Part shown: piece after piece, positions 1,193 to 4,363 of the stretch
How positions within the stretch are numbered: position 1 is the first letter of the stretch
Layout: each line of letters opens with the position of its first letter
NCBI RefSeq assembly: GCF_039974535.1
Contig: NZ_JBDWIU010000012.1
Span: 135,045-199,044, forward strand
Length of the DNA stretch: 64,000 nucleotides
Reading direction: 5' to 3'
Source of the DNA: Litoreibacter sp.
Lineage (GTDB): Bacteria > Pseudomonadota > Alphaproteobacteria > Rhodobacterales > Rhodobacteraceae
The notes under the pieces: generated by a model
Database searches by the model: none
Told to the model about the DNA's origin: nothing
Seen by the model: the letters and a program-made list of their open reading frames with translations, nothing else
Translations under genes and position numbers: made by a program

Positions 1193-1212
1193 GGGTAACC
1201 CGTGGGTTACCC
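1193..1212. terminator. Inverted repeat GGGTAACCC-GT-GGGTTACCC downstream of the small lipoprotein gene
   Basis: Perfect 9-bp arms 11 nt past the 1224 stop; no clear U-tract. Confidence 0.45.
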
Positions 1213-1223
1213 TCAGTGGCCCC

Positions 1224-1409
1224 TTAATCAACCGAGCATCCGGTGCCGCCGATGCCGTCGTCTTCGCCGGGAACGCATTCCTCAACCTTCGCGTGTGGGG
1301 CGGCCTCAACGGTGGTCTCGGCGATAATCGGTTCTTCAAGGATGAGGTATTCGGGGGTGGCACACCCTGCCAAAGTCAGTGCCAAGATCGCCGCTGCTAT
1401 CCGCTTCAT
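1224..1409 (-). CDS. 61-aa lipoprotein with C-terminal C-x5-DDGIGGTGC motif
   Basis: Lipobox LAGC; start overlaps the DUF6502 stop (ATGA). Confidence 0.85.
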   Translation of the reverse strand: MKRIAAAILALTLAGCATPEYLILEEPIIAETTVEAAPHAKVEECVPGEDDGIGGTGCSVD

Positions 1410-2140
1410 TTTGCGTCCTCAAAGTAGAAATATCCGCCTGCACGGAATCTGACGGGAGACGCATCGCTTGGCAACGCCTTCATCGCGGCGGCTTGGCTGT
1501 TGAGCTTCTCAAGCAACAGCATTTGCCCGTCGCGGTATTGCTGTTCCAGCGTGGCGACTTGGTCGGGCGAGAGGGCGGCGTAATGCACCGCGCGCTCAAA
1601 ATAGGGCGGCGCGTCGGAGGTGATGTTGACCGTTGCAGCGCTCAGGTGGTCACCCATGTTGCGCGCGAGATAGGCCATTTGGTCCTCGGACCCCGCCAGC
1701 GGTTGGTAGGAGGTCTCAACCAAGGTCACGGTCTCGCCGTCCACCGATACTGTCCCCGCGGCGATCAGCGTGTCCAACATCGTGCGCGGGTGGACGTCGC
1801 GGCGCACTTCCCATGCCAGCGCCTCGAATGACGGGGCGGGGCCGCTTTTGGGCAGGGGTTTATCCGCGTAATCCGCCTCGGTCTGCCACAGGGAGACAAG
1901 GCGTGACAGGTGGGTCAGGCGCGGCTCATTGGGGCGGAAGTCGCGCAAGCGGGCGACGTCGCGGCGCTGTAATCCGGTCATCACTGACAGGCGGCTGTCG
2001 GTTGGTTTCCCATCGCAGGTTTCACGTGCGGCTTCGACATAATGCGCTTTCAGGCGCTCCGCCAAGTCGGGGAAGGGGACGCCGAGGGTTACCATGAGGC
2101 GGGCAAACGGGGCGAGGAGGGCATCTAGCAAATCCAACAT
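1406..2140 (-). CDS. DUF6502-like putative HTH DNA-binding protein (start moved to ATG 2140)
   Basis: LLAPFARLMV..GVPFPDL, HTH-like SRLSVMTGLQRRDVARL, and DVHPRTMLDTL / YFERAVHY..LS motifs recalled for this family. Confidence 0.75.
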   Translation of the reverse strand: MLDLLDALLAPFARLMVTLGVPFPDLAERLKAHYVEAARETCDGKPTDSRLSVMTGLQRRDVARLRDFRPNEPRLTHLSRLVSLWQTEADYADKPLPKSGPAPSFEALAWEVRRDVHPRTMLDTLIAAGTVSVDGETVTLVETSYQPLAGSEDQMAYLARNMGDHLSAATVNITSDAPPYFERAVHYAALSPDQVATLEQQYRDGQMLLLEKLNSQAAAMKALPSDASPVRFRAGGYFYFEDAK

Positions 2141-2196
2141 ATGCGCAATATGCACATTTTTCTTGACGGCAGCAAGCGAATTTGAAATATGTGCAA
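2140..2196. promoter_or_regulatory. Overlapping divergent promoters between DUF6502 and the vWA gene
   Basis: Minus strand: TTGCTG-N17-CATATT, then 6 nt to the ATG (leaderless geometry). Plus strand: TTGACG (2163-2168)-N16-AAATAT. Inverted TGCACAT/ATGTGCA motifs flank the -35 elements. Confidence 0.5.
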
Positions 2197-2220
2197 GGTA
2201 CACATTGATTGGAGTTCCCC

Positions 2221-3540
2221 ATGATCAAGACATTTTCAGCCCCCAGAGTGTTTCCCCGAATGATTCCCTGCATGGCCCTTGTGACCAGTGCCATTTTGTC
2301 CGCATGTGACATGCCAGAAGGAGTGGTGTTAAGTGAGCCTGTGTTGATTGAGCCGGCAATAGCCCCCGCAAGCGCTAAGGTCGCGCCAACAATTGCACCG
2401 ACAATTGCACCGGCACCTGTTCCTTTGCCTCCGTCTCGCAATTCAGGGCGTGCGCGGCGCGGCGTTGTCACAGCGGGCGATATTGACGACGCATTGAACC
2501 TCGCGGCCTTCACCCGCTATCAGGCCAAATCGCGCAAAGAGCTAAAACTGCCGATGGCGAACCTGTCGACGCCCGTGTTGGCGCAGTTGCGCGGGGCCGA
2601 CGGCAAACCTGCACCGGGGGTGCGGATCACATTGCGCAAGCCGGGTGCGCAGGAGCCGTTCTATTCTGGATACTCGGGCGTGGACGGCATGATCTCGGTC
2701 TTTCCGGCGAGCCTTGGGGCAGGGCTATTGCGCGAGGTCGAGTTGCGCGCGATCCCAGAGGAGCAGGGTGCCCCCATGGTGCAACGCCTGAAGACTGGCC
2801 AGCGTGCGCAGGTACAACTGCCGTTTAGTGGGGACTGGAAGCCGGACTTCTTGGATATGGTGTTTGTGGTGGATACGACGGGGTCAATGGCGGATGAATT
2901 GGCGTGGCTGACCAAGGAATTGAAGGGGCTAACACGTCAGGCCAAGCGGGCGGCAAGTGGCGTCGATATTCGTTATGGTTTGGTGGTCTACCGCGATGAT
3001 GGGGATGCGTATGTGGTGAAAAACTATGGCTTCACCAAGCAACAGTCGCAGATGCAAGGTTGGCTGCGTCAGCAGTCTGCGGGCGGTGGCGGGGACTACC
3101 CTGAGGCGGCTGGTCGAGCTTTAGCCTCGGCGGCTGGTATGCAATGGCGAAGTGGTAAGGGGGAGCGGTTGATGATCCACGTCGCCGATGCGCCGGAGCA
3201 TAACAATCGCGCCAAAACCTACCTGCAAGCGGCACGCAAGGCGGCGTCTAAGGGAATCCAAGTGTTTGGGCTTGGGGCCAGCGGGGTTGGGCCTGAGGCG
3301 GAATACCTCATGCGCCAAGCGGCGGTGCAAACGGGTGGCCGCTACATGTTCCTAACCGATGACAGCGGCGTGGGCTACGGCCACCAAGAACCCACTGTGT
3401 CTTGCTACCGCGTCACGGCATTGACGGATTTGGTGGGGCGGGTGCTGCGCTCCGAGCTGACAGGGCGGCGCATTGAGGCGGCCCCGTCCAAGGTGGTGCG
3501 CGAAGTGGGCAGCTACCGCAATGGCGTCTGCTTGAACTAG
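2221..3540 (+). CDS. von Willebrand factor A domain lipoprotein
   Basis: GGAG SD before ATG 2221; lipobox LSAC; Pro/Ala linker; MIDAS motif VVDTTGSM, GGGDYPEA, HVADAP; C-terminal DDSGVGYGHQEP. Confidence 0.88.
   Translation: MIKTFSAPRVFPRMIPCMALVTSAILSACDMPEGVVLSEPVLIEPAIAPASAKVAPTIAPTIAPAPVPLPPSRNSGRARRGVVTAGDIDDALNLAAFTRYQAKSRKELKLPMANLSTPVLAQLRGADGKPAPGVRITLRKPGAQEPFYSGYSGVDGMISVFPASLGAGLLREVELRAIPEEQGAPMVQRLKTGQRAQVQLPFSGDWKPDFLDMVFVVDTTGSMADELAWLTKELKGLTRQAKRAASGVDIRYGLVVYRDDGDAYVVKNYGFTKQQSQMQGWLRQQSAGGGGDYPEAAGRALASAAGMQWRSGKGERLMIHVADAPEHNNRAKTYLQAARKAASKGIQVFGLGASGVGPEAEYLMRQAAVQTGGRYMFLTDDSGVGYGHQEPTVSCYRVTALTDLVGRVLRSELTGRRIEAAPSKVVREVGSYRNGVCLN
2383..2413 (+). repeat. 12-bp tandem repeat encoding APTI-APTI-AP in the vWA linker
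   Basis: gcgccaacaatt gcaccgacaatt gcaccgg. Confidence 0.7.
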
Positions 3541-3542
3541 CG

Positions 3543-3737
3543 TTACTTGCCTTTGGACATCGTGCGGGCGCCAGCTGCGGCCGCACGAATTTCTTCGGCA
3601 ATTTCTTCGGCTTCTTCGGGCTCAAAATCGAAAGGCAGCTCAACGCCGTCGGCCTCGACATAGATACGTACCATGCCGTCGGTGGTTGGACCGATTTGCA
3701 AGTTACCGGCGATTTCGCTTTCGCTGTTGATACCCAT
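3543..3737 (-). CDS. Small acidic conserved protein (DUF6324-like); start ATG 3737
   Basis: MGINSESEIAGNLQIGPT..GMVRIYVE...DFEPEEAEEIAEEIRAAA; AGGG SD upstream. Confidence 0.8.
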   Translation of the reverse strand: MGINSESEIAGNLQIGPTTDGMVRIYVEADGVELPFDFEPEEAEEIAEEIRAAAAGARTMSKGK

Positions 3738-3888: not shown

Positions 3889-3965
3889 GCCGCCTTAGCT
3901 CAGTTGGTTAGAGCACTGGTTTGTGGAACCAGGGGTCCCCCGTTCGAGCCGGGGAGGCGGTACCA
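3889..3965 (+). tRNA. tRNA-His (GTG)
   Basis: Acceptor stem GCCGCCT/AGGCGGT, D-arm TAGCTCAGTTGGTTAGAGC, anticodon arm CTGGT-TTGTGGA-ACCAG, T-loop GTTCGAG, encoded CCA. Confidence 0.98.
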
Positions 3966-4048: not shown

Positions 4049-4363
4049 CTATGGGCGAGAGTTTACCTTAATTTCCTGCGTGAGCTCGCCGCTGTCGCGA
4101 TCGAATATCAGGATCCGATTGTCGGATGTCACCACCGCGTACCATGTGGGGGCTTGCGTGAAGGCGGTTGTTTCAGTGCCGTCGGGTAAGGTTATGTAGT
4201 CTGGAATGGCGATGTCCGGCGCACCAGCGTTCAAGCGGATGACAACCAATGTAATCATCACTACAAGGCCCACAATCATCGTTGCGGTCAGGGTTGTTAC
4301 CAAGCGTCGCAAGAACTTTAGGTTGGCGGGCTCTTCCGCCGGAATTTCGGGATTATTGTCCAT
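4049..4363 (-). CDS. Single-TM conserved protein (DUF6476-like)
   Basis: EPANLKFLRRLVTTLTATMI TM segment; LPDG...FTQ..WYAVVT motif. Confidence 0.8.
   Translation of the reverse strand: MDNNPEIPAEEPANLKFLRRLVTTLTATMIVGLVVMITLVVIRLNAGAPDIAIPDYITLPDGTETTAFTQAPTWYAVVTSDNRILIFDRDSGELTQEIKVNSRP

Follow-up and report, generated by a model that had tools for sequence, protein, structure and literature searches.

The closest relatives of the locus described here are uncharacterised two-gene modules of Proteobacteria in which a gene of the DUF6502 family is followed by a gene encoding a GGIGGTG/DUF5666 (PF18914) protein; they occur, for example, in Rhizobium (loci L053–L073) and, as a second type, in relatives of Litoreibacter (L031–L036). 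Individual features are also shared with better described systems. HetR of the cyanobacterial HetR/PatS system (PDB 4YRV, 4J00, and 4HRI) contains a novel helix-turn-helix (HTH), binds a palindromic operator as a dimer, and is controlled by a glycine-rich peptide from a very small gene; the PatS peptide RGSGR inhibits HetR and is bound at its hood domain (PMC4649674). In TetR/TetA-type cassettes, two palindromic operators in a short divergent gap, one per promoter, give joint repression and autoregulation. Integrin beta-I and other von Willebrand factor type A (vWA) domains carry a D-x-T-x-S metal ion-dependent adhesion site (MIDAS) that receives Asp-loop ligands such as Arg-Gly-Asp (RGD) peptides and disintegrins (3VI4 and 3ZDX), and vWA lipoproteins are represented in bacteria by BatB (3IBS), YfbK, and CglD. 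We analysed a 64,000-nucleotide stretch of Litoreibacter sp. (GCF_039974535.1, contig NZ_JBDWIU010000012.1, positions 135,045 to 199,044; hereafter the window), in which a 2.3-kb block comprises a DUF6502 gene, a gene for a 61-aa lipoprotein ending in a GIGGTG motif (the mini-lipoprotein), and a divergent gene for a vWA lipoprotein. A full-text literature search returned no paper mentioning DUF6502 or GIGGTG, DUF5666 being mentioned only in passing, and we found no published account of the three-gene module in the literature searched.

Comparison of genomes indicates that the block is a real, conserved, and horizontally mobile cassette of marine Rhodobacteraceae. The neighbourhood check proposed in an earlier note on this DNA recovered the trio in about 28 genomes with varying flanks. 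Twelve congeners carry it, 8 between mmcB and DUF6324 and 4 at other sites. In 7 congeners with no trio between mmcB and DUF6324 these two genes directly adjoin, as the earlier note had expected of relatives, and the 2.3-kb block is therefore an insertion. In a family sample of one genome per genus (150 genera), a vWA orthologue was present in 8 genera; in 5 of them it lies next to a divergent DUF6502 gene (58–64% DUF6502 identity), in 1 it is split across short contigs, and in 2 it stands alone. Looking up 8 more vWA homologues gave 7 trios and 1 standalone gene. The neighbours of the trio vary between genera (tuf, greA, ompA-like, and dapD), and the three genes therefore travel together. The nearest DUF6502 and vWA homologues are those of Litoreibacter species, and none of the three cassette proteins matched a PADLOC defence model at E≤0.01. 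We consider the trio best explained, with somewhat better than even confidence, as a self-contained mobile envelope cassette under its own repressor.

The DUF6502 protein matched PF20112 at 41.5 bits (cut-off, 27; profile positions 10–237 of 268), and the whole-genome scan found no second copy. Start codons were set from homologue lengths and alignments, which gave ATG 2140 (MLDLLDALL) instead of GTG 2203 of the longest open reading frame (ORF) for the DUF6502 gene, and ATG 2221 behind GGAG for the vWA gene. The AlphaFold2 model (predicted local distance difference test score, pLDDT, 83.9) has an HTH at residues 47–66 (TDSRLSVMTGLQRRDVARLR) followed by a winged-helix-like unit, and the HTH holds most of the invariant DUF6502 residues (T47, S49, S52, T55, G56, and R59). 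The top Foldseek matches of the model were HetR-DNA complexes (4yrv_B; probability 0.92, E 0.013, TM 0.27–0.41), followed by MarR, IclR, and GntR regulators. DUF6502 is a probable dimeric HTH DNA-binding repressor.

The gap between the DUF6502 and vWA genes is exactly 80 bp. The TGCACAT and ATGTGCA motifs that the earlier note had seen there are present, each being half of a separate 17-bp palindrome: TGCACAT (2151–2157) is the inner half of the first site, operator 1, and ATGTGCA (2189–2195) is the outer half of the second, operator 2 (Table 1). Operator 1 covers the −10 box of the predicted DUF6502 promoter, and operator 2 covers the −10 end and predicted start point of the vWA promoter. A site of the form AATGTGyA-N3-TrCACATT (core ATGTG-N7-CACAT) occurs exactly twice, with centres 46–49 bp apart, in each of 25 intergenic regions of mini-type loci, i.e., those with a small GIGGTG ORF downstream of DUF6502. 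The proximal site lies 0–4 nt from the DUF6502 start codon in 25 of the 25, and the distal site is kept in every one irrespective of the divergent gene. A position weight matrix (PWM) made from the sites and run over the 3.44-Mb genome ranked operator 1 second (30.3) and operator 2 fourth (21.7), after which the scores dropped from 21.7 to 15.5. Two more operator-like sites lie outside the window. One (C17:1493–1515, TAAATGTGCAATATACACATCTA; PWM score 31.1) lies close to repA/repB-like genes of a 44-kb contig. The other (C3:188020–188042, AAAATGTGCAATCTACACACATA; 24.0) lies in an AT-rich stretch, where the ATG of a strain-specific gene for a 323-aa membrane protein follows 11 nt later.

The half-sites differ by DUF6502 clade: ATGTG/CACAT in the 25 mini-type loci, ATGGG-N7-CCCAT in L051, L052, L082, and L083, and GTGGGA-N5-TCCCAC in L036, L056, L068, and L079. 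Within DUF6502 residues 57–62, the predicted recognition helix mostly has Arg as its third residue in loci with TGTG half-sites (QRRD/HRRD) and Lys in those with TGGG (QRKD/HRKD/HRKE), L079 being an exception; that the Arg/Lys change tracks the T/G change is suggestive only. Both promoters were read against the alphaproteobacterial promoter consensus, CTTGAC-N17-CTATAT. The TTGAC element beside operator 1 is kept in all DUF6502 clades examined. The DUF6502 gene has no Shine-Dalgarno (SD) sequence, its promoter block is kept in relatives, and its mRNA is probably leaderless. Because the operator pair is conserved, with one site on each divergent promoter and a half-site that shifts with the clade, DUF6502 very probably represses both arms, its own operon included, in line with the proposal of the earlier note that it regulates both. 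A DUF6502 dimer would bind the two palindromes about 48 bp apart; one bound operator would block the −10 box of the DUF6502/mini-lipoprotein operon, and the other would block the −10 and start region of the vWA gene. Since each operator overlaps one promoter, both arms would be repressed together and the regulator would control itself. This arrangement is that of the TetR/TetA-type cassettes; unlike TetR, however, the regulator has no TetR-fold or TetR sequence match, and its targets are lipoproteins and not an efflux pump.

In regard to the mini-lipoprotein, its gene starts within the ATGA (1406–1409) that also contains the DUF6502 stop codon, so the coupling of an HTH-bearing DUF6502 gene to a 61-aa lipoprotein described in the earlier note stands. 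The product (MKRIAAAILALTLAGC...EECVPGEDDGIGGTGCSVD) consists of a signal peptide, a lipobox (LAGC, Cys16), a 28-residue acidic/hydrophobic tether, and the end C45-VPGE-D-D51-GIGGTG-C58 followed by SVD; the mature form has 45 residues, with DDGIGGTG at residues 50–57. The spacing had been given as C-x5-DDGIGGTGC and is corrected here to C-x4-DD. This lipobox and that of the vWA protein (LSAC) are kept in orthologues and fit [LVI][ASTVI][GAS]C, the calls being made by pattern. The residue at position +2 is Ala in the mini-lipoprotein and Asp in the vWA protein. The 61-aa protein matched no Pfam family at E≤0.1, DUF5666 included, and a scan of its own genome gave no DUF5666 match. A protein search with it found only 13 database relatives, because ORFs this small are seldom called. 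Every mini-type locus has a 47–74-aa ORF downstream of DUF6502 with a lipobox, a Cys, G-[IVL]-G-G-T-G, and a second Cys, and these features persist in over 30 loci, including some whose DUF6502 identity is as low as 37%; overlap of the start and stop codons of the two genes is frequent across loci. In 22 loci, positions 1 and 2 of the six motif codons are invariant and position 3 is free. This pattern shows that the small ORF is translated and subject to purifying selection.

The GIGGTG partner lies downstream of DUF6502 in all of the approximately 60 loci examined. Long-type DUF6502 proteins (about 35% identity) were seen in Rhizobium, in other Rhodobacteraceae, and as a second copy in some congeners; their partners are exported proteins of 275–660 aa that start with one to three acidic-GIGGTG units followed by DUF5666-type domains, and one long partner from a relative matched DUF5666 at 28.7 bits. 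The earlier note's statement that DUF6502 genes usually sit beside long GGIGGTG/DUF5666 proteins is thus borne out. In a maximum likelihood tree of 40 DUF6502 proteins, all mini-type proteins fall in one clade (support, 97/86), whose sister group is the main clade of long-type proteins; L082 and L083, a divergent pair, lie outside both. The tree indicates that the partner was reduced to the bare motif in one event, long ago. The sequence comparisons give good support to the view that the mini-lipoprotein represents the exported acidic-GIGGTG partner in its minimal form, fixed long ago: only the lipid anchor, the tether, and the motif, which two cysteines are predicted to close into a loop, are left. 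Reduction to the motif, which had been noticed earlier, is accordingly the conserved form of one clade. The single mini-type clade and the codon pattern led us to reject a recent truncation. The same evidence bears on the broader alternative that the ORF is a decaying DUF5666 remnant or spurious, with the vWA gene adjacent by chance. The missing Pfam match, the few database relatives, and the absence of a DUF5666 gene from the genome would fit it, but the retention of lipobox, Cys pair, and motif, the codon pattern, the single old clade, and the recurrence of the trio with differing flanks speak against it; we find it hardly credible and, on trio recurrence, tree, and motif codons, count it as already refuted.

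The cassette resembles the DUF6502/DUF5666 modules in its regulator family, in the position of the partner (immediately downstream and often overlapping), in the export of the partner with acidic-G-[IVL]-G-G-T-G near the mature N-terminus, and in the paired 17-bp palindromes upstream (TGkG..CmCA type). It differs in that the partner has no DUF5666 domains and is a 45-residue mature lipoprotein with the motif closed by two Cys, in the added divergent vWA lipoprotein gene with its own operator, and in the separate clade of its DUF6502.

The vWA protein has a lipobox (Cys29), a tether that is disordered up to about residue 80, an invariant RRGVVTAGDIDD-LNLAAF segment, a beta-sandwich at about 119–199, and the vWA domain, with the MIDAS D218-x-T220-x-S222 and two invariant Cys (395 and 437) at the C-terminus. 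In hidden Markov model searches it exceeded the cut-offs of PF25106 (VWA_4; 37.5 bits against 27) and PF00092 (33.4 bits against 23.8), which agrees with the divergent MIDAS-containing vWA lipoprotein placed about 80 bp away in the earlier note. The putative metal ligands D218, T220, S222, and D323 are invariant in an alignment of 26 homologues, and D292 is kept in at least 90%. The AlphaFold2 model (pLDDT 82.2; residues 1–80 below 50) matched vWA domains of integrin beta-I (first), ANTXR, SpaC, and BatB at E values of about 1e-7, and some of the top beta-I matches are structures solved with RGD peptides. The NCBIfam CglD match was 22.6 bits, far under the cut-off of 400. Unlike integrin, BatB, YfbK, and CglD, this Rhodobacteraceae vWA family has its own specific tether, RRGVVTAGDIDD segment, and beta-sandwich.

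The tethers behind the lipid-bearing Cys of the two lipoproteins (1272–1361 on the minus strand for the mini-lipoprotein and 2305–2460 on the plus strand for the vWA protein) are colinear and alike within a genome. In the window they read CATPEYLILEEPIIAE..AAPHAKV (mini-lipoprotein) and CDMPEGVVLSEPVLIE..APASAKV (vWA); in L038, EEEVVIVEPVMAEPS and EEEVVIVEPVLAEPS, with 14 of 15 residues but 4 of 14 codons identical; and in L046, EPEPEPVIIVEEPAYILI and EPEPEPLVVIEEEPAYILL. Among 15 lineages, same-genome pairs scored 47.2 and cross pairs 31.4 (p<1e-5 by permutation of the pairing); in 10 lineages the same-genome pair topped its row, and in 12 it exceeded composition-matched shuffles at z>3. The same codon was used at 39% of 218 aligned identical tether residues, which equals the codon-usage expectation, and no inverted DNA repeat joins the 5' regions of the two genes. 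We therefore rejected gene conversion as the source of the likeness, which is kept at the protein level. These results suggest selection for matching tether sequences. We hold it an even question whether the two lipoproteins work together in the periplasm, with tethers that are homologous and co-evolving. Co-varying tethers were also seen in the relatives L027, L048, L094, and L100.

The loop itself differs with the vWA gene. D-GIGGTG-C, with Asp right before and Cys right after the motif, is invariant in 26 of the 26 loci of the vWA sub-clade (24 with a VWA_4-type gene, L044 with another vWA, and one with a truncated cargo), whereas the 6 mini-type loci without vWA all have G-GIGGTG with a Cys at varying distance. 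Like the RGD loops, the candidate ligand has an invariant Asp beside Gly in a predicted disulfide-closed loop. By analogy with an RGD loop on an integrin beta-I domain, Asp51 of the loop would engage the MIDAS metal as its acidic ligand; we put this forward tentatively and think it the less probable outcome. Circumstantial support for such a contact comes from the invariant loop of the vWA sub-clade, from the unrelated vWA family in the corresponding slot of L044, and from the co-variation of the tethers. The fuller picture of a bacterial disintegrin/integrin-like pair, held in register by the tethers and switched by a HetR-like repressor, we consider unlikely. A role of the cassette in signalling or adhesion is a guess.

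Several observations weigh against the explanation of the trio as an envelope cassette under its own repressor with two cooperating lipoproteins. The fold likeness of DUF6502 to HetR is weak, no DUF6502 fold match reaches E≤0.001, and the DUF6502 sequence profile found nothing among PDB chains at E≤10. The overlapping divergent promoters of the earlier note can both be read against the alphaproteobacterial consensus, but a strict E. coli-type sigma-70 scan found no promoter, and both are predictions from sequence. The explanation also gives no account of how two exported proteins would be sensed by a repressor in the cytoplasm. The switch to D-GIGGTG-C maps to one branch, so that its correlation with vWA has n = 1. 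Three points tell against a specific pairing of the peptide with the vWA domain. GIGGTG is universal in DUF6502 systems and predates the association with vWA. The basal mini-type loci L050, L052, L076, L077, and L078 carry an FPARIGxARV lipoprotein in place of vWA, and their two lipoproteins have no tether likeness. Finally, three vWA orthologues (56–64% identity) are standalone, namely those of G157 (L074), G178 (L075), and Aliiroseovarius (L095). They lie in housekeeping contexts (a pyrC-like amidohydrolase, or rsmE and GNAT), and no DUF6502, peptide, or palindrome/operator was found near them.

The observations on the slot opposite DUF6502 bear on an alternative in which DUF6502 represses both promoters, the vWA gene is an interchangeable passenger, the lipoproteins never touch, and the GIGGTG loop acts on another periplasmic target common to all DUF6502 systems. 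The slot holds four things: the VWA_4-type gene; in L044, an unrelated vWA lipoprotein with vWF_A, VWA, and YfbK_C domains; the FPARIGxARV lipoproteins; and, in the metagenome-assembled L047 (4710–4923, minus strand), a 71-aa lipoprotein with signal peptide and tether and then a stop, which could result from truncation of a vWA gene or from misassembly. The FPARIGxARV lipoproteins (190–260 aa) lie behind the same distal operator, share the motifs FPARIG[IVL]ARV, ARQHLDAVLIYE, and LLDVRNGYPYG, and gave no Pfam or NCBIfam match. Retention of the distal operator with all occupants, the universality and greater age of GIGGTG, and the standalone vWA orthologues also favour mere co-regulation. It does not, however, account for tether co-variation without a DNA-level conversion signal, or for a loop that became invariant exactly in the vWA sub-clade, and a second cargo that is again a vWA lipoprotein (L044) would be improbable by chance. 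We regard co-regulation without contact as a possible explanation, at well below even probability.

A further alternative is a feedback of the HetR/PatS kind, HetR being the best structural match of the DUF6502 model. The GIGGTG peptide may be the signal of DUF6502 itself, as an unexported precursor or after processing and re-uptake, releasing or strengthening DNA binding, with translational coupling setting the ratio of regulator to peptide. DUF6502 and the GIGGTG partner are the only two constant components in all clades, their start and stop codons often overlap, and HetR is inhibited by a small Gly-rich peptide. However, every partner has an export signal, the lipobox and Cys pair of the mini-type point to an oxidised periplasmic form, and the cassette encodes no importer or processing protease. 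Moreover, the weak HetR match (E 0.013) comes without profile support or sequence relation. The cassette also differs from HetR/PatS in that the cyanobacterial genes are uncoupled and the PatS peptide lacks a lipid anchor, and contact between GIGGTG and DUF6502 is a conjecture here. We judge such feedback quite improbable, and a self-contained mobile envelope cassette under its own repressor is the explanation we retain. The coordinates of its features are given in Table 1.

Table 1. Features of the cassette and of the FPARIGxARV genes in basal mini-type loci. Positions are those of the window unless preceded by a locus.
Feature	Position	Strand	Remark
Hairpin GGGTAACCC-GT-GGGTTACCC	1193–1213		Perfect 9-bp stem, read from sequence
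Mini-lipoprotein gene	1224–1409	−	61 aa, from ORF listing
DUF6502 gene	1406–2140	−	244 aa counted from ATG 2140; PF20112 match
Operator 1, ATGCGCAATATGCACAT (minus strand, ATGTGCATATTGCGCAT)	2141–2157		17-bp palindrome with one mismatch; abuts DUF6502 ATG
Predicted DUF6502 promoter	2148–2176	−	−35 CTTGCT (2176–2171), 17 nt, −10 GCATAT (2153–2148), 7 nt to ATG
Predicted vWA promoter	2162–2190	+	−35 CTTGAC (2162–2167), 17 nt, −10 AAATAT (2185–2190)
Operator 2, ATGTGCAAGGTACACAT	2189–2205		Perfect 17-bp palindrome
vWA lipoprotein gene	2221–3540	+	ATG 2221, 439 aa; SD GGAG at 2211–2214
FPARIGxARV lipoprotein gene	L050:4340–4936	−	
FPARIGxARV lipoprotein gene	L052:4085–4870	−	
FPARIGxARV lipoprotein gene	L076:5771–6451	+	
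FPARIGxARV lipoprotein gene	L077: from 5894	+	
FPARIGxARV lipoprotein gene	L078:5760–6371	+	

The block is flanked by an MmcB-like gene (mmcB) on one side and by DUF6324 and tRNA-His on the other. DUF6324 (3543–3737, minus strand) and DUF6476 (4049–4363, minus strand), both small uncharacterised genes, sit either side of tRNA-His (3889–3965, plus strand), and the order rluD, DUF6476, DUF6324, mmcB, cupin is kept genus-wide. The hairpin where mmcB and the mini-lipoprotein gene converge has no U-tract and belongs to repeats D3/I1 of the repeat search. The terminator scan did not call it; it may be a terminator, perhaps a bidirectional one.

The DUF6502 family comprises 4,973 clusters at 50% identity, 3,699 of them with E≤1e-10. 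In its simplest form, the locus described here, 2.3 kb hold a single regulator, a pair of operators, and two small targets. This locus is convenient for proving a regulator-operator pair, for studying the function of GIGGTG, because nothing else of the partner remains here, and for asking why two lipoproteins retain matching tethers. Should the peptide prove to be a MIDAS ligand, the cassette would offer a rare example in bacteria of a vWA domain whose ligand is co-encoded and genetically defined. A disintegrin/integrin-like pair, if true, would add a previously undescribed way in which lipoproteins recognise each other, and its repressor would come from a family of about 5,000 sequence clusters without a studied member.

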